Source: Candidatus Iainarchaeum sp. | GTDB taxonomy: Archaea > Iainarchaeota > Iainarchaeia > Iainarchaeales > JAZDEL01 | Assembly (NCBI GenBank): GCA_043808785.1 | Contig: JAZDEL010000002.1 | Coordinates: forward strand, 90,001-122,000 | DNA: 32,000 nucleotides | Direction: 5' to 3' | Shown here: positions 417 to 27,915 of the stretch, piece by piece | How positions within the stretch are numbered: position 1 is the first letter of the stretch | Layout: each line of letters begins with the position of its first letter | Translations under genes and position numbers: made by a program | The notes under the pieces: generated by a model | Databases searched by the model: none | The model's input: the letters and a program-made list of their open reading frames with translations, nothing else | What the model was told of the DNA's origin: nothing

Positions 417-1064
417 CTAAGCCGCTACGCCAAAAAACGCAAGAATTGCCCTGAAAAAGAAAACCCCTATTCCTGCCGTTGCAAACATCACGCCCCATAT
501 CCAGGGCTCCCAGAGCATCACCTTCTTGCCGTCAAGCGGGCCGACAGGCAGGAGATTAAATAGCGCGAGGAAGAAATTTATCTGCGCAATGAACATGAAA
601 ATTGTGCCAAGCGTCTGGTTCCATGAAAACAGCACCGTGAGCAGCATGAAAACGAAGGCCACAACGATGTTTGTCGCCGGCCCCGCTGCTGAAATAATCC
701 CGTTCTGCCTCCTCGTTATGTGCGGCCCGTATATGTAAACCGCCCCGGGCGCGGCAAAAAGGAAGCCGAAAAATGCGGAAACAAGCGCGAACATCAGCCC
801 GAGGCTCCACGCCCTGTATTCGGCGTGCGCCTTGAACATCCTCGCAACCTGCCTGTGCGCAAGCTCGTGGAAAACGAAGCCCGTGCCGACGGCAATAAGC
901 GATACCGGGAGCAGCACGATAGTTGACGCGATGTTGAACAGCCCGTCCCCGAACAGGAACGAGAATGCGATGCTTATCGTGAGCCAACTAACTATCAAAT
1001 CTACTTTTTCATTTTTTCCGAGCAGTGGCATTCCATCACGCACAAATCCTGATGCAAAAACCAT
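417..1064 (-). CDS. Site-2 protease family (M50) intramembrane zinc metalloprotease
   Basis: HELAH (HExxH) lies in a TM helix, an LLPVGPLDG motif follows, and the protein is polytopic and hydrophobic. The ATG is at 1064; the ORF-track start at 1076 is TTG. Confidence 0.85.
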   Translation of the reverse strand: MVFASGFVRDGMPLLGKNEKVDLIVSWLTISIAFSFLFGDGLFNIASTIVLLPVSLIAVGTGFVFHELAHRQVARMFKAHAEYRAWSLGLMFALVSAFFGFLFAAPGAVYIYGPHITRRQNGIISAAGPATNIVVAFVFMLLTVLFSWNQTLGTIFMFIAQINFFLALFNLLPVGPLDGKKVMLWEPWIWGVMFATAGIGVFFFRAILAFFGVAA

Positions 1065-1092
1065 AAAAACAAGCAACCCTTGTCGCGGGTTT

Positions 1093-1143: not shown

Positions 1144-1175
1144 TACTTCGTCAATCAACGAAATATTTAACTAAC
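1144..1175 (+). promoter_or_regulatory. Imperfect palindrome TTCGTCAATCAACGAA fused to the TATA-like box ATATTTAA; putative promoter/operator of the 1203-2968 operon
   Basis: 27 of 32 nt match the module on the minus strand at 3596-3628. The ATG at 1203 is 32 nt past the TATA-like box. Confidence 0.6.
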
Positions 1176-1202
1176 CCTGCGAACAGGTTATTTTTGGTTT
1201 TT

Positions 1203-1781
1203 ATGCACAGGCGCGGGATTTTCACATTCGTCCTTGTCCTTCTCTTTATCCAGTCCGCCGCGGTAATGTCCGGCATTGCCGCGGAACAGCAGCGCTCCAT
1301 TTCCGATGCGCGCAGCCTTGCCCTGCAGATGGAGCGCGCAAGGCTTGTTAGGGAGGAGGTAGAGGTTGCGGTTGACCGCACGATTGGGCAAACAATGCTC
1401 GCTGAAATTTCCTCAGGCAACAAAAACCCCGCGGCAATCCGCGCAAAAATCGCGGAAAACCTTGTTTCGGTTTTCGGGCAGTTCGAGGATGCATACCCCG
1501 AAAACCCGAAGGTTGATTTTTTTGCCGGAAATTATTACGGGGGAGGGTACCTGCGCCTCCTGGGCACGGAAGGGGGCAAGCCGAAGGCGCGTGAACTGGA
1601 AAATTATTTCAGGGTTCTTGTATTGCATGCCGGCAGTAAGGCATATGCAGCGGAATTCACATACACGGGCGGGGAAATGAAAAGCAGGGTTCTTTATGCA
1701 AAGATAAGCACGGAGAGCTTCTCGCAGGTTTTCGTTATCCCCATCGGGTACAAGATTGCAATTAACGGAGTTGTGCCCTGA
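1203..1781 (+). CDS. Hypothetical pilin-like protein (N-terminal MHRRG/IFTFVLVLLF, class III signal-peptide-like)
   Basis: An internal ATG at 1203 was verified. It has a short basic leader, a Gly, then a hydrophobic helix. Its stop overlaps the next start (TGATG). Confidence 0.6.
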   Translation: MHRRGIFTFVLVLLFIQSAAVMSGIAAEQQRSISDARSLALQMERARLVREEVEVAVDRTIGQTMLAEISSGNKNPAAIRAKIAENLVSVFGQFEDAYPENPKVDFFAGNYYGGGYLRLLGTEGGKPKARELENYFRVLVLHAGSKAYAAEFTYTGGEMKSRVLYAKISTESFSQVFVIPIGYKIAINGVVP

Positions 1782-2125
1782 TGACGCTCGAGGCAATGCT
1801 TTCCTTCGCGCTCTTCCTCGCGCTCCTCGGAGCTTTTGCGGGAATAGAGGCGATGCAGTCCGCGAAGGCTTCCGAAGCCGCGTACAAATTCTCCGCGGAA
1901 CTCGAGAGCTGCAGGTGCGCGCTTGTTATAGATTCCTTCTATGCGAATTCCGGCGGCGCGCTGCAGGGCTTCGGTTCCTCGTGCTATATGAAAGGCACAA
2001 ATTCTGTTGCCGCGCAGGTGCGCGGCTTCGAGAAGGAGAGCGCAATCCTCAACTCAGGCACCAAATTAATTCAGACTCCGCGCGGCACGCGGATGGAGGT
2101 GCAAGTGAATGAGCATTACAGGTAG
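1781..2125 (+). CDS. Hypothetical small protein with a pilin-like hydrophobic N-terminus (MTLEAMLSFALFLALLG)
   Basis: It is translationally coupled on both sides and has a single N-terminal hydrophobic helix with an early Glu. Confidence 0.5.
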   Translation: MTLEAMLSFALFLALLGAFAGIEAMQSAKASEAAYKFSAELESCRCALVIDSFYANSGGALQGFGSSCYMKGTNSVAAQVRGFEKESAILNSGTKLIQTPRGTRMEVQVNEHYR

Positions 2126-2615
2126 GCGCGGCATCGTGTTCTCCTTCGACCTTCTAATCGCGTTCATAGTTATGTGCCTCATCCTTTGCCTCATCCTCGT
2201 GAACATGAACCTGCGCGCGGATTCCGCGGTTTCCGCGCAGCGCTCTTTCGCGCTGCAGCATGCCGCGCTCTCCGTTGCCGACACGCTTGTGCAGAACGCC
2301 GACCTGAACAATCCCGCGCTCGGTTCCGCATATTTCGGCGAGGATAAGCGCAGGGTTTTCGGGAATGTTATTGACGGCACGCTGCTTGCAAAGGCGGACT
2401 TCGCAGGCATTAGCCTTGGCAAAGGCATTTTTCTGAAGGAAGTTTCACTGCGCTACAAAAGCGGGGAGTACGGGCAAATTCACCGTTCCCCTTTGCCCGC
2501 GGGGAGTTGCACCGCTGCGGAGCGGTTCGTTGTTGTGAAAGGCGCGGCAATTGCAAAAGGCGCTACGGAGGAAAAGGCGATTCTCACGGTTGTCGCCTGC
2601 GAGGGGGGCATCTGA
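2109..2615 (+). CDS. Hypothetical pilin-like protein (MSITGRRG/IVFSFDLLIAFIV)
   Basis: It has an RRG motif followed by a hydrophobic helix. It overlaps the upstream gene by 17 nt and the downstream gene by 1 nt. Confidence 0.6.
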   Translation: MSITGRRGIVFSFDLLIAFIVMCLILCLILVNMNLRADSAVSAQRSFALQHAALSVADTLVQNADLNNPALGSAYFGEDKRRVFGNVIDGTLLAKADFAGISLGKGIFLKEVSLRYKSGEYGQIHRSPLPAGSCTAAERFVVVKGAAIAKGATEEKAILTVVACEGGI

Positions 2616-2968
2616 TGAACGCAAGCGCCTTCCACCTGGGCATTGAGGCTGTGTTCAGCCTCCTCGTGCTCGCACTGCTCCTGTCCGCACCTGTTCCTGC
2701 AGCTGACTCCTCCCTCTCGCGCCTCCAGCTCCTGCAGAAACAGCAGGATTTGCTTGCAGTATGGGTTGCCTTCGGGAACCCTGATGCGGAAACCATGCGT
2801 GCGGATTTTGTTTTTGTTTTCCCCGGGAGGGCCGGCATTATCGGATTTGCGGGGGATAAATTTGAAATCAATTTGCCTCCCGAGGGTTGCACGCGCAGCA
2901 CTGCAAGTGCCCGCTATCTCGACGGCACGCTTCGCCTGCGGGAAATAACCCTGACCGTATTTTGCTGA
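2615..2968 (+). CDS. Hypothetical pilin-like protein (MNASAFHLG/IEAVFSLLVLALLL)
   Basis: An ATG at 2615 was verified and overlaps the preceding TGA. It has an N-terminal hydrophobic helix with Glu near the putative cleavage site. Confidence 0.55.
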   Translation: MNASAFHLGIEAVFSLLVLALLLSAPVPAADSSLSRLQLLQKQQDLLAVWVAFGNPDAETMRADFVFVFPGRAGIIGFAGDKFEINLPPEGCTRSTASARYLDGTLRLREITLTVFC

Positions 2969-2980
2969 TGTTCCGCGCGC

Positions 2981-3409
2981 CTACCCGAATTTTGCCAGGA
3001 TTTTACCCGAACTTTTCACAAGCGCGATTTTGAATTTCCTTTCCATTGTTTTCGCGCCGCCGCTGAAAATTATTTCGACAGGCATCTCCGCGGAAAGTTC
3101 CTTTCGCTTGCCGAGTTCTTCGCTTTCAACAGCAACGAAAATTTCCCTCCCTCTTGCCGAAATTTCCCACTTTCCCAAAGGTTCCGCCTCTAACCCCCTT
3201 GACGACCCTTCCCCGAAGTTCTGCAGTTCTCCGGCCGCGGCCTCCGCCTTCCAGAGGAAAAGTTCCGCAGCCCTTGCATCCATCGCGAAAATCCCTGCGG
3301 CATAAACCCCGCCTAATGAGGGCAGGATGAAAGCAAGGAACGAGAAAAAAACCGCGAGTACGAGGAGATACTCTATGCTCGCCTGCCCGCGAACCCGCGG
3401 CGCGCTCAT
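2981..3409 (-). CDS. Archaeal type IV pilin-like protein with a class III signal peptide (MSAPRVRGQ/ASIEYLLVLAVFF)
   Basis: It shows the canonical archaeal prepilin N-terminus: basic leader, GQ, S-x-E-Y-L, then a hydrophobic helix. Its start overlaps the stop of the upstream small pilin gene (ATGA). Confidence 0.75.
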   Translation of the reverse strand: MSAPRVRGQASIEYLLVLAVFFSFLAFILPSLGGVYAAGIFAMDARAAELFLWKAEAAAGELQNFGEGSSRGLEAEPLGKWEISARGREIFVAVESEELGKRKELSAEMPVEIIFSGGAKTMERKFKIALVKSSGKILAKFG

Positions 3410-3576
3410 ATGTCGTCTATCTCCTTGAATATGTCGCCTGTTTTCTTCTCGATTACCTGCGAGCCTTTCGCCGTCGTTTTCTGCAGCTGCGTCACGAGGA
3501 GAAGCACTATTGCAACAACAGCGGCAAGCACTATTATGAGTTCAACTGAAATCTGGGCTTTTTCTTCATTAAGCAT
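3406..3576 (-). CDS. Small (56 aa) class III signal-peptide pilin-like protein; not in the supplied ORF track
   Basis: Manual minus-strand translation gives MLNEEKAQISVELIIVLAAVVAIVLLLVTQLQKTTAKGSQVIEKKTGDIFKEIDDI*. The KAQ/ISVELIIV N-terminus is typical of short archaeal class III signal-peptide proteins. Confidence 0.7.
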   Translation of the reverse strand: MLNEEKAQISVELIIVLAAVVAIVLLLVTQLQKTTAKGSQVIEKKTGDIFKEIDDI

Positions 3577-3595: not shown

Positions 3596-3628
3596 CCTTA
3601 TTTAAATATTTCGTCAATTGACGAACTA
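3596..3628 (-). promoter_or_regulatory. Perfect 16-nt palindrome TTCGTCAATTGACGAA (3610-3625) fused to a TATA-like box (minus-strand ATATTTAA, 3602-3609); putative promoter/operator of the small-pilin operon
   Basis: The palindrome directly abuts the stop codon of the ArsR-like gene. The ATG at 3576 is 25 nt past the TATA-like box, which fits a leaderless transcript. Confidence 0.65.
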
Positions 3629-4324
3629 ATCAGGAACGAGTTTTTTGCAGTATTTTATAAGCGCATTTATGTCCTGCAAAGTGAAGTTCCTGTCAATCGC
3701 AGAAGCCGCACTTTCTATGGCTGAGCAGTCATCCTCTGTAAACAGCCTTCCGCCTATGGTTCCTGTGCCCTCAGCAATGCCAGTTGCAATGCCGCCTTCG
3801 GTTGCAGAGCCGCCCGCGTCCGGCACTGTTTCCCCCTTTCCCCCGCCCTGCACGACTTCGCTTGTTTCCTCCGCCTCCCTGTTGCCCGCGCCCTTTTCCG
3901 CGGCAGCAGGCACGGCAAATGCAGGTTCGGTTCCGCCAGCATCCGTGAGGGCAGGGCCCTGTGCTGCGGGAATCCCCTGCATGCCCATATTCGAGAACAT
4001 TATCGCCATAATCCCCACAAGCGCTACAAGCGTTGCGCCAAGGACAATCAGTATATGCGTCTGGTTCTGCTCCGCATCAGCTATGCCTATTCCCTTGCCA
4101 GTGAGCGCGTAATATTTCCACTTCCTTCCTTCGTCCACGCGCTCTATGAAGCCCTTGTCCTGCAGCATCTGCAGGTGCTGTTTCGCGCTCGGCGCGGCAA
4201 TCCCCATTTTAGCGGAAATCTCGCTAAGGGTATGCCTGCGTTCCTTAAGCAGTTTGAGTATCTTTACGCGCGCGTCCGAACTGAGCGCCTTAAACTCTCC
4301 GGATGAAATAGTTATGTCCGCCAT
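3626..4324 (-). CDS. Membrane-tethered ArsR-family winged-helix transcription regulator
   Basis: The N-terminus LSSDARVKILKLLKERRHTLSEISAKMGIAAPSAKQHLQMLQDKGFIERV...KYYALT is an ArsR-type wHTH. One TM helix follows (ILIVLGATLVALVGIMAIMF), then a Gly/Ala/Glu-rich linker and a small C-terminal domain with 2 Cys. Confidence 0.8.
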   Translation of the reverse strand: MADITISSGEFKALSSDARVKILKLLKERRHTLSEISAKMGIAAPSAKQHLQMLQDKGFIERVDEGRKWKYYALTGKGIGIADAEQNQTHILIVLGATLVALVGIMAIMFSNMGMQGIPAAQGPALTDAGGTEPAFAVPAAAEKGAGNREAEETSEVVQGGGKGETVPDAGGSATEGGIATGIAEGTGTIGGRLFTEDDCSAIESAASAIDRNFTLQDINALIKYCKKLVPD

Positions 4325-4339
4325 TGCAACAACCCGCGC

Positions 4340-4654
4340 CTAAAATACTATTATAAGCAAAATAAGCAGCGCAAAAACCGCGAGCGCAAACGCCCTGCTG
4401 TAATACGCCATCAGCCCGAGCACTGCAGGCGCGATGAGCAGCCATACGCCGAGCTCGTGCTGCCTCGCGGTTATAACCGAGCCGTAAACCGCCCCTGCGG
4501 AAAACAGCAGGAAAAGGAAAGCCACAAAGCTGCTTATCTGCTTGGTTACGTATTCGAGGACCTTCTCGACCCAGCCGTCGACCCTGCCCTTGCCCGAAGC
4601 CTTGCCTTCCGCGGCATGCGCATCCCCGTGAGCCTCTGCAGCGTGTTCAGACAT
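4340..4654 (-). CDS. Hypothetical small membrane protein (about 3 TM helices, His/Ala-rich N-terminus)
   Basis: ATG verified. It has hydrophobic segments and lies 15 nt upstream of the ArsR-like gene on the same strand. Confidence 0.6.
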   Translation of the reverse strand: MSEHAAEAHGDAHAAEGKASGKGRVDGWVEKVLEYVTKQISSFVAFLFLLFSAGAVYGSVITARQHELGVWLLIAPAVLGLMAYYSRAFALAVFALLILLIIVF

Positions 4655-22369: not shown

Positions 22370-23773
22370 TCAGGGCTCCATGCACATTCTCTTCATTACA
22401 TCTTCCCTGTCGGGTATTTTCCCGCAGAGCGATTTGTCGCCGTGGTGCGGCCCGGTCCCGACTACAAGGAAGTAATAGCAGCTCCCTTTCCCCGAGGAGC
22501 TGTCGCTCATCAAATCGCACTCTGCGGCATTCCGTTCGGTTATTGCCTTGTTGAAATGTAACTGGTCCTTGCACTTCTGCTTATAGCCCGCATCGGATAT
22601 CTTCCCGCACTCCGCCATATCTTCTTTTGAAATTGCATTCGAATAAATTTCCTTGTCTTCCGTGCTCTGGTTCCTCCCGAGCAGGCTTTCGGTACAGTCC
22701 TGCCTTCCCTCTGCGCTTTCTATCTTATTGCACATTGCCAAGTTATACCGTTGCACGCACCCTTCTCTGAACTGCTGCGAACTTATGTTGTTGCACATCG
22801 TAACATCTCCTTCCTTAACCGCAATTGTTATGAAACAATTTGCCTGGCCGGATTCTCCAAGCACGGTGCTTGTGTCCATCTTCCTGCAGAGCCCTTCATC
22901 ATTGCCCCTTTCCGCAATGTCGTTGTAGCAGGTGTTCCTCGAATGTGCCATTGTTTGGATGGTGCTCTCTTTTGGCAGGGCTTCGCAGTATGAACTATCC
23001 CCCGTTGCCAGGGCTTTGCAGTGATTTCTCGCGTCCTCATCAGAAACCCATTTGCAGAGGCTGCCGTCCCCCGACTCGGAGGCAACATCGTAATAGCAGC
23101 TTTCTGCCCACCCATAGCCGCTGTCATCAGATAGGAGGTCGCAGATTGCGGGGTCTTTTTTCGCATTTGCAACGTCCCTTATGCAGCTGTTCCTGTACGT
23201 GCTTTCACTTAATTCCTTGTCAAATTCTATCTTTTCGCATATGGATGCATCAAGCATTGCAACAGCCCGGGCAGTGAAAACCTCCTTTTTGCAGAAATCC
23301 GACTTGCTTTTCCCCATTTCTTTCATATATCCCTCGCCCTGGTATGCCTTATCCTTCAATATCCTTTCGCAGATTTCCTCGTCCAGTTCCGCAACGGCAA
23401 TTGCGCTTACACAGTTGTCCCTCTTTGAGTTATCGCTGAGCTGTTCGCACATTGCCGGGTCGCGCGCGGCAAGCGCCTTTTCAGGGATGCCTGTATCCTT
23501 TGCCTCCCAGACTGCCTCATAGCAGTGCTGCTTTTTCACCGCGTCTTCAGGGGCGCTGACTGCAATTTCGTTGCAGATTGCCGTGTCTTTCGCTGCAACA
23601 GCCCTTGCCGTTATTTTCTCCTCGTCAGTCATTTGTGCGCTTCCGCCCGCGGGGCTGCCGGTGCCCCGCCCTCCCTGCTGCTGCCCCGCAAGTTCCTGCG
23701 GCTGCGGGCAGCCTGAAAGCAGGATAATTGCGGCAAGCGCGGCAAAAAAAAGCAAAGCACAATTTCCCTTCAT
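22370..23773 (-). CDS. Cysteine-paired repeat lipoprotein (hypothetical)
   Basis: It has a signal peptide with the lipobox-like LLSGC and a Gln/Gly-rich linker. About 13 degenerate repeats of roughly 30 aa follow, each with two Cys (pattern D-x3-C-x9-20-C). Confidence 0.75.
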   Translation of the reverse strand: MKGNCALLFFAALAAIILLSGCPQPQELAGQQQGGRGTGSPAGGSAQMTDEEKITARAVAAKDTAICNEIAVSAPEDAVKKQHCYEAVWEAKDTGIPEKALAARDPAMCEQLSDNSKRDNCVSAIAVAELDEEICERILKDKAYQGEGYMKEMGKSKSDFCKKEVFTARAVAMLDASICEKIEFDKELSESTYRNSCIRDVANAKKDPAICDLLSDDSGYGWAESCYYDVASESGDGSLCKWVSDEDARNHCKALATGDSSYCEALPKESTIQTMAHSRNTCYNDIAERGNDEGLCRKMDTSTVLGESGQANCFITIAVKEGDVTMCNNISSQQFREGCVQRYNLAMCNKIESAEGRQDCTESLLGRNQSTEDKEIYSNAISKEDMAECGKISDAGYKQKCKDQLHFNKAITERNAAECDLMSDSSSGKGSCYYFLVVGTGPHHGDKSLCGKIPDREDVMKRMCMEP

Positions 23774-25025: not shown

Positions 25026-25135
25026 TTCGTACACCTGCGGGCGATTGTAAAGGTATTTATACTTACTTATATGGATATTCTTATATATAAACCATAACCG
25101 AAACGCCGTAAATCGGCGTTTTCAGGGTGTTTGTT

Positions 25136-27267: not shown

Positions 27268-27332
27268 AACGCGCTATTCGGCTTGTGCCGAATGCGCCCA
27301 TTTTGGCTGAAAGCCAAAATAGGGCGTTTTTT
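27268..27332 (+). repeat. Two-hairpin module, copy 2, followed by T6
   Basis: Hairpin 1 is ATTCGGC-ttgt-GCCGAAT (27276-27293). Hairpin 2 is CGCCCATTTTGGC-tgaaa-GCCAAAATAGGGCG (27295-27326). TTTTTT follows at 27327-27332, and the csl4 ATG is at 27346. Confidence 0.7.
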
Positions 27333-27345
27333 GGGGCGTATTTTT

Positions 27346-27915
27346 ATGGCTAAAGAAAAGGATAGCATTGTTTTCCCCGGCTCTTTCCTGAGCGCCGAGG
27401 AGGAATTCAGCGCGGGCAGGAACGCCTTTGCCAGCGGCGGCACCGTGCTTTCCGAATGCACGGGGGTTTGCGAACTGGATAAGGCGGCGCGCGAAGCGAA
27501 TGTTTCCTGCAACCGCAGGGTTGCCGCGCCTCTTGACATGGGTTCGGTTGTTGTAGGGGTAGTTGCAATGGTAAAGGAAAATGCCGCGGTTATAGAGATG
27601 ATGCAGGCAAGCAACAGGGGCGAGCCGCGCGTGATACTTGCCTCGTACGCAAGCCTGCCGATATTCAATATAAGCAACGATTATGTCGAGCAGATACGCG
27701 ACGCCGTGAAAATAGGCGATGTTGTAAAGGCGGTTGCGGTGAAAGTCCTGCCGCACGGAGTCGACCTCTCGATAAAGGACCCCGAGTTCGGGGTTGTGAA
27801 AGCGTTCTGCGCAAAGTGCAGGCAGCCGATGCAGCTCTTCGGGCAGAAGCTCATGTGCTCCGCCTGCGGGCGCACGGAGGCAAGGAAAATTTCCAGGGAT
27901 TACAGGCTTAAATAG
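27346..27915 (+). CDS. csl4: Exosome complex RNA-binding subunit Csl4
   Basis: The N-terminal domain is IVFPGSFLSAEEEFSAGRN. An S1-like central domain follows, then a C-terminal zinc ribbon CAKC...CSAC. It is adjacent to rpoL, as in many archaea. Confidence 0.88.
   Translation: MAKEKDSIVFPGSFLSAEEEFSAGRNAFASGGTVLSECTGVCELDKAAREANVSCNRRVAAPLDMGSVVVGVVAMVKENAAVIEMMQASNRGEPRVILASYASLPIFNISNDYVEQIRDAVKIGDVVKAVAVKVLPHGVDLSIKDPEFGVVKAFCAKCRQPMQLFGQKLMCSACGRTEARKISRDYRLK

Follow-up and report, generated by a model that had tools for sequence, protein, structure and literature searches.

We analysed a 32,000-nucleotide (nt) stretch of DNA from Candidatus Iainarchaeum sp. (contig JAZDEL010000002.1, positions 90,001 to 122,000; hereafter the window), in which archaeal housekeeping genes, including Orc1/Cdc6, RFC, PheRS, Lon and PCNA, accompany a nine-gene cluster that is common to approximately 50 species-representative genomes. 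The cluster comprises two convergent operons, pil56–pil142 on the minus strand and op1–op4 on the plus strand, an M50-type protease gene that is divergent from op1–op4, a gene for a small membrane protein (TM104) and a gene for a winged helix–turn–helix (wHTH) protein with one transmembrane (TM) helix, the candidate regulator, which is the sole DNA-binding gene of the set. The 232-amino-acid product of that gene is identical to a protein of a Candidatus Diapherotrites metagenome-assembled genome, which places the source among the DPANN archaea, in the Iainarchaeum group. Among related loci, the conserved cluster contains neither an assembly ATPase nor a platform gene, and no recombinase. Upstream of each convergent operon lies a copy of a short module in which a dyad-symmetric sequence is followed by a TATA-like box, and it is these two modules that concern us here (Table 1).

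The 24-nt cores of the two copies, TTCGTCAATTGACGAAATATTTAA on the minus strand (3625–3602) and TTCGTCAATCAACGAAATATTTAA on the plus strand (1147–1170), differ at two positions. The original prediction, made from the letters of the window, described a 32-nt module with 27 of 32 positions identical between the minus strand at 3628–3596 and the plus strand at 1144–1175 (tacTTCGTCAATCAACGAAATATTTAActaac), a perfect 16-nt palindrome at 3610–3625 and a second copy at 1147–1162 that keeps the TTCG...CGAA arms. Direct reading reproduces the identity and the palindrome and finds both sequences at those places, although 3628–3596 (tagTTCGTCAATTGACGAAATATTTAAataagg) spans 33 nt rather than 32. The distances to the start codons also stand (25 nt from ATATTTAA to ATG 3576 and 32 nt to ATG 1203), as does the absence of the motif from the rest of the window: searching with the 24-mer and up to three mismatches returned exactly two sites in 32 kb and none in 100 dinucleotide-preserving shuffles. 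The modules are inverted repeats that face inward and flank a 2.4-kb block containing both convergent operons, and the TAG stop codon of the regulator gene (3626–4324) directly abuts the perfect palindrome. The bare arms, TTCG-N8-CGAA, occur three times in the window, against 1.1 expected. The third occurrence, at 27277–27292 (TTCGGCTTGTGCCGAA), has an unrelated centre without the YR-AW-YR pattern (Y, pyrimidine; R, purine; W, A or T) and is consistent with chance; a TTTAAATAG box precedes it by approximately 37 nt, and it falls at the 5′ end of the open reading frame (ORF) 27283–27915.

Table 1. Features of the two modules and the surrounding gene cluster (positions in the window; an arrow marks the putative cleavage motif; BRE, transcription factor B recognition element)
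Feature	Position	Strand	Description
Operator 1 (putative)	3610..3625	-	Perfect 16-bp dyad TTCGTCAATTGACGAA; directly 3′ of the wHTH stop codon, upstream of the pil56 promoter
BRE position of the pil56 promoter (putative)	3607-3612	-	GAAATA; 3-bp overlap with the proximal operator arm
pil56–pil142 TATA box (putative)	3599..3606	-	TTTAAATA; starts 30 nt before ATG 3576
pil56	3406..3576	-	56-aa class III signal peptide (prepilin-type) protein, MLNEEKA↓QISVE...
pil142	2981..3409	-	142-aa product of the second gene of the operon; class III signal peptide (..RG↓QASIEYL..)
Operator 2 (putative)	1147..1162	+	Imperfect dyad TTCGTCAATCAACGAA; upstream of op1–op4, M50 gene divergent on the other side
op1–op4 TATA-like box	1166..1173	+	TTTAACTA; 28 nt before TTG 1194, 37 nt before ATG 1203
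op1	1194..1781	+	192/195 aa; prepilin-like N terminus MHRRG↓IFTF and hydrophobic helix
op2	1781-2125	+	Small protein with an N-terminal hydrophobic segment
op3	2109-2615	+	Small protein with an N-terminal hydrophobic segment
op4	2615-2968	+	Small protein with an N-terminal hydrophobic segment
Candidate regulator (wHTH–TM)	3626..4324	-	232 aa; ArsR-like winged HTH, one TM helix, spacer, C-terminal domain
TM104	4340..4654	-	104 aa, three predicted membrane helices; immediately upstream of the regulator gene
M50/site-2-protease-like intramembrane metalloprotease	417..1076	-	HELAH, NLLPVGPLDG; likely start ATG 1031

The archaeal TATA box is an A/T-rich element of 8 bp that is centred approximately 26–27 bp before the transcription start. 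Downstream of the palindrome on the minus strand come ATA, TTTAAATA (3599–3606), 22 nt and then the ATG at 3576, an order from which, by analogy with known archaeal promoter geometry, we infer that TTTAAATA is the TATA box and 3607–3612 the BRE. Because this box begins 30 nt before the ATG and such boxes are centred 26–27 bp before the start, the pil56 promoter has the geometry of a leaderless transcript; in most homologous promoters the corresponding distance is 28–31 nt. For op1, the NCBI annotation places the start at an in-frame TTG at 1194 (195 amino acids, P0109) rather than at ATG 1203, and the TTG fits leaderless spacing (28 nt) better than does the ATG (37 nt). Other promoters of the window have TTTAAATA-like boxes 25–30 nt before their start codons and variable BRE regions, all without TTCG-N8-CGAA, and the dyad is therefore no generic promoter feature.

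A profile search with the regulator, using one genome per species, returned 247 relatives, from which 80 loci (1.01 Mb in total) were fetched; individual loci of relatives are cited below by L number. In two relatives, L001 and L003, in which the regulator is 71% and 50% identical, respectively, the whole gene arrangement and both sites are kept: operator 1 is identical, with identity of the pil56 copy extending over 30 nt between diverged flanks, and operator 2 retains its imperfect centre, TCAATCAAC. Both sites are also present in relatives with regulators that are 36–57% identical, and homologous sites occur upstream of pil56 in approximately 40 species and upstream of op1 in approximately 45. 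A generalized core, CGT-YR-AW-YR-ACG, matches 55 unique sites across the 80 loci, compared with about 2.7 in shuffled sequences, and 50 of 53 such sites fall within 140 nt upstream of a pil56, op1 or M50 start; the approximately 1,040 other ORFs in these loci are without the dyad. Lineages missed by the strict core have variants at the same promoters (TTCGTTGAACAACGCA in what we term class 2; TTCGTTTTTTGCCGAA or TTCGCTTTTCAGCGAA in others). When up to one mismatch in the arms is allowed, the dyad is found in 62 of the 89 regions upstream of pil56 or op1, compared with 2.6% of random windows.

As a guard against circularity, we tested every inverted 4-mer dyad with a spacer of 0–14 nt, 3,840 in total. 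TTCG-N8-CGAA ranked first (32/89 versus 33/8000, p=1.6e-52) and its own nested sub-dyads came next. The dyad persists in species with proteins that share just 20–50% identity. Phylogenetic footprinting recovers the dyad at almost all pil56 and op1 promoters of the approximately 50 species with the cluster and, in the loci of related genomes, concentrates it at the promoters of pil56, op1 and M50. Like a transcription-factor operator, the site is conserved above its flanks and holds a fixed position relative to the core promoter. The gap between dyad and ATG falls into discrete classes, of 33–34 nt (as in this window), 38–39 nt and 42–44 nt. The dyad also precedes 24 of 35 M50 genes, mostly 45–50 nt before the ATG, and in many genomes a single dyad sits between two divergent TATA boxes, that of pil56 or op1 on one side and that of M50 on the other.

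A metagenome scan for TTCGTCAATNNACGNAATATTT returned only 17 stretches, about half of them chance matches with non-YR centres, and a single new type of target. This is a third full module, TTCGTCAATCAACGAAATATTTAAAC, found in one lineage (RIFCSPLOWO2_01_FULL_58_19-like; L007 7246–7261, L090 7658–7673 and L099 11552–11567), where it precedes a gene for a secreted protein of approximately 500 amino acids (MTLQPSKHFLPLIFPVLLGLALF...). The protein is a possible extra member of the regulon and perhaps an adhesin.

The alignment of homologous promoters indicates which parts of the site matter. Across 36 promoters of class 1, the consensus reads wTCGTCAAT-YR-ACGwA-ATA-TTTAwA, the TATA-distal half (TTCGTCAA) is more conserved than the proximal half and the inner dinucleotides are always pyrimidine–purine steps; across lineages, the universal part is the TTCG/CGAA arm pair. 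The conserved determinant is the arms together with the central pyrimidine–purine steps, and not the perfect palindrome that the original prediction stressed. The inner dinucleotides are mutually complementary in only 12 of the 36 class-1 sites, which implies that base pairing is not selected, and we saw no compensatory changes that maintain pairing across species. This grammar points to a protein that recognizes the arms on either side of a deformable centre. The dyad ends 3 bp before the TATA box in this genome and in all class-1 promoters. The statement that it occupies the BRE position is partly borne out here, in that its last 3–4 bp overlap the BRE and the rest lies outside; it does not generalize, as other lineages have the dyad 5 or approximately 10 bp further upstream. 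In class-1 promoters of L006, L008, L009, L016, L018, L023, L028, L029, L037, L071, L074 and others, a T-rich element, roughly (G/T)(G/T)TTTT, is found 5–10 nt beyond the TATA box (at about −17 to −12 relative to the ATG). Conserved in many relatives but lacking in both copies of the window, it is a possible promoter-proximal element.

The arrangement of the cluster varies. The regulator gene is next to pil56 in the window and in L001, L003, L007, L009, L012 and L037, and next to op1 in approximately 40 other loci. A neighbour-joining tree built from four cluster proteins, concatenated, has the rarer orientation in at least 3–4 separate places, which suggests repeated inversion between the modules. 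The sites follow their target genes throughout: neither inversion of the block nor its separation from the regulator gene changes which two gene families they precede, in keeping with the idea of a shared site.

Several readings that do not involve an operator have to be set against these data. The perfect copy lies directly 3′ of the wHTH stop codon and could form a 6-bp stem, as would suit an RNA or DNA hairpin that might, for instance, terminate transcription of the wHTH gene or fold at the 5′ end of the pilin mRNA. We consider this highly improbable: the copy at the op1 operon has a stem of only 5 bp and follows no gene on its strand, and the predicted pil56 start is downstream of the site, which would leave the site outside the pilin mRNA. 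The fold energies are not significant (z = −1.8 and −1.0) and pairing is maintained in just the 12 class-1 sites counted above, which together rule out an RNA hairpin or terminator. Hardly more probable is the proposal that the modules are primarily recombination sites for a phase-variation-like switch that inverts the 2.4-kb block, despite their inward-facing arrangement and the occurrence of the block in both orientations, the rarer of which is scattered across the tree. The cluster encodes no recombinase, and inversion would be functionally neutral with the same promoter at each end; in one lineage, a single third module precedes the gene of an unrelated secreted protein, and the conserved feature is the position of the dyad relative to TATA box and ATG. 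Module similarity is 0.68 within genomes and 0.62 between them, which indicates little concerted evolution and leaves recent duplication or gene conversion only a small part in the likeness of the two copies. The least credible reading attributes that likeness to a recent local duplication or to a generic strong-promoter consensus of the genome (an extended BRE plus TATA box). In its favour, CGAAA is similar to a BRE rich in purines, and the window contains 9 CGAAATATTTAA-like strings where 3.1 are expected, a mild enrichment; but a generic consensus is ruled out by the dyad-free window promoters and the approximately 1,040 dyad-free ORFs; nor does it sit with retention of the dyad where the proteins are so diverged.

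The wHTH domain of the candidate regulator matches the Pfam family HTH_5 (arsR family) at 35.5 bits against a cut-off of 22 bits and falls below the cut-off of the NCBIfam metalloregulator subfamily (48.2 versus 55); by these profile scores, it is a member of the broad ArsR family and not of the metalloregulator subfamily. After the wHTH (residues ~8–75) come a TM helix (~90–112), a spacer that is disordered and rich in Gly, Ala and Glu, and a small C-terminal domain that contains Cys. In an AlphaFold2 (AF2) model, the predicted local distance difference test score (pLDDT) exceeds 90 over the wHTH and the helix at 76–114, and Foldseek gives target-normalized TM-scores of 0.7–0.8 against CzrA, NolR and AspA, with which the model shares the fold of four helices and a β-hairpin wing. 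The nearest relatives in sequence and fold (Phr, PH1932, CzrA, NolR–DNA and AspA–DNA) are homodimeric proteins of the ArsR/SmtB type that bind dyad-symmetric DNA. The region after the wing forms one continuous helix into the membrane segment, indicating that the protein is membrane-anchored and not a soluble dimer of the α5 type. In homologues with two membrane helices, the C terminus is a strongly basic tail, which puts the N-terminal wHTH on the cytoplasmic side and the variable region on the outside of the cell.

Across all classes of site, virtually no variation is seen in the recognition helix (A/S-P-T/S-x-K-Q-H), in the wing (DEGRKWKYY) or, on the DNA, in the TTCG/CGAA arms. We found no covariation between recognition helix and site class; reading head and arms alike are invariant, and the comparison does not discriminate between candidate binders. 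The TM104–wHTH pair adjoins the block in approximately 50 species, whichever way the block is oriented, and in many genomes the dyad touches or overlaps the regulator stop codon. Upstream of TM104 and of the wHTH gene, the sequence looks like background, with no sign of autoregulation through this operator. Distant wHTH–TM homologues, in genomes labelled Woesearchaeota or ‘Methanosarcinales’ (L062, L065, L068, L072, L077, L079, L080 and L082), have no dyad and no pilin block; instead, their stop codon is followed by a conserved string, GATATTTATTAACGCTC, and a small lipoprotein-like gene (MKKT...LTAC). Given this different string and the lack of dyad and pilin block, this branch of the family has another target.

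The genes downstream of the two modules differ in how clearly they belong to pilins. A class III signal peptide (PF04021), with its K/R-G/A ↓ Q/hydrophobic cleavage motif and hydrophobic helix, is present in both proteins of the minus-strand operon. The window copy of pil56 matches PF04021 with E=8.8e-4 and 19.6 bits, below the gathering score of 23.7 bits; among its homologues, 26 of 29 match (best E 1e-7) and Q8, S10 and E12 are invariant. The figures for pil142 are 21 of 28 homologues, with Q9 and E13 invariant. Pil56 is probably the major filament subunit. The description of both operons as pilin-like stands for this one and is tentative for the plus-strand operon, where it draws on the N terminus of op1 and finds no family or fold match. 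Op1 is conserved in 50 loci, with a nearly invariant G5 and a conserved N terminus (M-x-x-K/R-G-F-F followed by a hydrophobic helix), but none of 28 homologues matches PF04021, and Pfam, NCBIfam, a PDB profile search and Foldseek with the AF2 model returned no significant match. That model, of moderate confidence and based on an alignment of only four homologues, shows a long N-terminal helix and a β-domain. Op2, op3 and op4, which have overlapping start and stop codons, are each found in 46–49 loci in the same order and have no family matches in Pfam or NCBIfam.

We favour, with a probability of about 70%, the interpretation that the two modules are promoters that share one operator, and that the membrane-anchored, ArsR-like wHTH protein encoded alongside binds this operator as a dimer. 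The original prediction of a dimeric regulator’s site at the promoters of both operons, with the 3626–4324 product as the candidate binder, gains strong support from the phylogenetic footprinting. The operator would be the 16-bp dyad TTCG-N8-CGAA, with the core CGT-YR-AW-YR-ACG and its pyrimidine–purine steps at the centre, and a wHTH dimer would place one recognition helix or wing on each TTCG arm. Leaderless mRNAs would result, with transcription beginning approximately 23 nt downstream of the TATA box, on the start codon or immediately ahead of it. One protein would in this way co-regulate pil56–pil142, op1–op4 and, in most relatives, the divergent M50 gene, with its extracytoplasmic tail as the likely input. 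We lean slightly towards activation, which would work by helping recruitment of TFB and TBP. It is favoured because, in other lineages, the dyad is clear of the BRE and TATA box, midway between divergent TATA boxes, a position at which occlusion is implausible, and because the characterized membrane-bound regulators of pilus-type genes, ArnR and ToxR/TcpP, are activators.

Several observations weigh against parts of this interpretation. Repression is the classical mode of ArsR-type proteins and would suit the overlap of site and BRE seen in this genome. The TATA box (TTTAACTA) and start codon (1194 or 1203) of op1 are less clear-cut than those of pil56, and the 38–39-nt class of dyad-to-ATG gaps is half a helical turn off the others, which weakens a strict face-of-the-helix argument. 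The invariance of reading head and arms is co-conservation rather than covariation and cannot discriminate between candidate binders. In AR10, a complete genome, the regulator gene lies 7 kb from the block and both sites persist, such that the dyad follows the target promoters and not the regulator gene; conversely, 86 kb around wHTH family members without the pilin block contained no dyads. The link between protein and site is thus one of association, through gene neighbourhood.

Two variants of the operator interpretation take up these points. In one, regarded here as a tentative alternative, the same wHTH–TM dimer acts as a repressor that occludes the BRE and blocks TFB recruitment until an envelope signal releases it. 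This would suit the window and all class-1 promoters, where the dyad ends 3 bp from the TATA box and its proximal arm (CGAA) overlaps the BRE, and it would agree with the behaviour of the fold-search relatives CzrA, SmtB and NolR, and of Phr, all of which are repressors. However, approximately half of the species have the dyad 5–10 bp further upstream, off the BRE and TATA box, and the dyad also serves the divergent M50 promoter from 15–20 bp upstream of the M50 TATA box; a steric block would fail at those positions, and the mechanism would have to differ between close orthologues. In the other variant, the operator is real but is bound by a factor encoded elsewhere, and the wHTH–TM protein has different targets. 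The evidence for the binder is synteny, the dyad tracks the pilin promoters rather than the wHTH gene and distant wHTH–TM homologues exist without pilin clusters or dyads. We nevertheless find it rather improbable, given the constancy of TM104–wHTH next to the block in either orientation, the lack of any other conserved DNA-binding gene in the neighbourhood and a reading head that is as invariant as the arms.

TM104 is found beside the wHTH gene, always directly upstream of it, in 48 loci, including loci without the pilin block; it has no family match in Pfam or NCBIfam and is a possible partner of the regulator. The M50 protease (Pfam Peptidase_M50, 48.8 bits against a cut-off of 27.2 bits) is present in 46 loci, and the HExxH and NxxPxxxLDG motifs are kept in 47 of 47 cluster M50 proteins. 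In three species (L038 7671–9515, L040 7615–9464 and L073 37–1361), TM104, wHTH–TM and M50 follow one another directly, with neither a pilin block nor TTCG-N8-CGAA in between, and the three genes therefore form a unit of their own. The N-in, single-pass topology of the regulator is typical of substrates of site-2 proteases (S2Ps). From this linkage and by analogy, the three proteins might constitute a self-contained archaeal switch based on regulated intramembrane proteolysis, an idea that we put forward as doubtful. The M50 protease would cut the membrane helix of the regulator and release or destroy its wHTH domain, with TM104 as the gate or protector, in the manner of TcpH or BofA. The switch would act on the two surface-filament operons that bear the dyad and on the protease gene as well, closing a feedback loop. 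If true, this would supply the first natural substrate for archaeal S2Ps, the targets of which were listed as unknown in a 2022 review (PMC9263693), and a DPANN route of signalling from envelope to promoter for appendages that are probably used for host contact. The M50 protein also has weak NCBIfam matches to intramembrane metalloproteases of ribosomally synthesized and post-translationally modified peptide (RiPP) or epipeptide maturation (daptide HExxH, 3e-4; YydH/LiaK, 6e-3), and it might process small pilin-like peptides rather than the regulator.

Elsewhere in the window, the minus strand at 22370–23773 encodes a 467-amino-acid, Cys-rich repetitive protein with a lipoprotein-like N terminus (MKGNCALLFFAALAAIILLSGC...). 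At 25035–25126, a very AT-rich divergent intergenic stretch (...TATATATAAGAATATCCATATAAGTAAGTATAAATACC...) separates the gene for a 418-amino-acid membrane protein from an SPFH/band-7-like gene and contains two apparent back-to-back TATA-like boxes.

The element is most likely a deeply conserved operator-plus-promoter module of a DPANN surface-filament cluster, which the adjacent membrane-anchored wHTH protein would read. DPANN archaea are uncultivated and their gene regulation is almost unknown; surface filaments are their likely means of attaching to hosts or substrates. The module offers a testable unit (a 16-bp operator with known critical positions, a candidate regulator with an 85-residue soluble DNA-binding module, and three target promoters in approximately 50 species) that is open to work in vitro and needs no culture of the organism. 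Lineages in which the site is displaced by 5 or 10 bp provide a natural experiment on how an archaeal regulator contacts TFB and TBP, and the linked M50 gene is a concrete link to a candidate substrate for archaeal S2Ps. In the literature, we found nothing on this motif or on the regulation of Iainarchaeum pili.

Among known systems, ArnR and ArnR1 of Sulfolobus acidocaldarius are membrane-bound one-component activators of the archaellin gene flaB, and ArnR also binds the aapF and upsX pilus promoters (PMC6396743; PMC4858521). As with ArnR, the protein described here is an archaeal membrane-anchored HTH regulator encoded beside filament genes of the type IV pilus (T4P) family. ArnR acts at inverted repeats upstream of BRE and TATA box, one regulator serving several surface-structure promoters; the likeness here extends to gene neighbourhood and site position, and the regulator is predicted to act in the same way. 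ArnR, which is confined to Sulfolobales and Desulfurococcales, combines a pfam13463 HTH with a HAMP-like sensing domain and a C-terminal pair of membrane helices. By contrast, the DPANN protein has an ArsR-like wHTH that leads directly into one TM helix and an extracytoplasmic tail, its gene is linked to M50 and a small three-TM protein, and its proposed operator is a single, sharply defined dyad. PF13463 was not among the best 25 of 30 Pfam matches of the 3626–4324 product, which is analogous to ArnR and not a member of its family. The haloarchaeal arCOG00381, a predicted membrane-bound regulator beside predicted major pilins in a T4P locus (Makarova et al. 2016, PMC4858521), resembles it in that neighbourhood, and differs in protein family (pfam11748), in phylum and in that no operator has been described; that archaeal T4P census does not mention DPANN, wHTH or M50.

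The DNA-binding fold is that of the ArsR/SmtB family (CzrA, SmtB, NolR and HlyU; archaeal Phr and PH1932; AspA of pNOB8), which act as homodimers on dyad-symmetric operators. The known members are soluble, and the helix through which they dimerize (α5) is replaced here by a linker that runs into the membrane helix. Systems based on site-2 proteolysis (SREBP–S2P, RseA–RseP and pro-σK–SpoIVFB/BofA) similarly pair an M50 protease with intact motifs (HExxH and LDG) with a single-pass membrane transcription factor and a small multi-pass membrane protein; unlike in those systems, the pairing here is one of gene association, with no cleavage site, site-1 protease or PDZ/CBS regulatory domain identified. 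In Vibrio cholerae, ToxR and TcpP–TcpH–RseP (YaeL) are transmembrane regulators upstream of the toxin-coregulated type IV pilus (PMC11323476). ToxR and TcpP share the layout of an N-terminal cytoplasmic wHTH, one membrane helix and an external domain, with pilus genes as output, and the TcpP/TcpH/RseP set, in which a small membrane partner accompanies a site-2 (M50) protease that acts on the regulator, is paralleled here in gene content alone. The bacterial proteins differ in having an OmpR-type wHTH and in binding direct repeats. The module described here would thus extend membrane-bound one-component control of type-IV-pilus-like genes from ArnR in Sulfolobales and ToxR/TcpP in Vibrio to a third, unrelated protein family.

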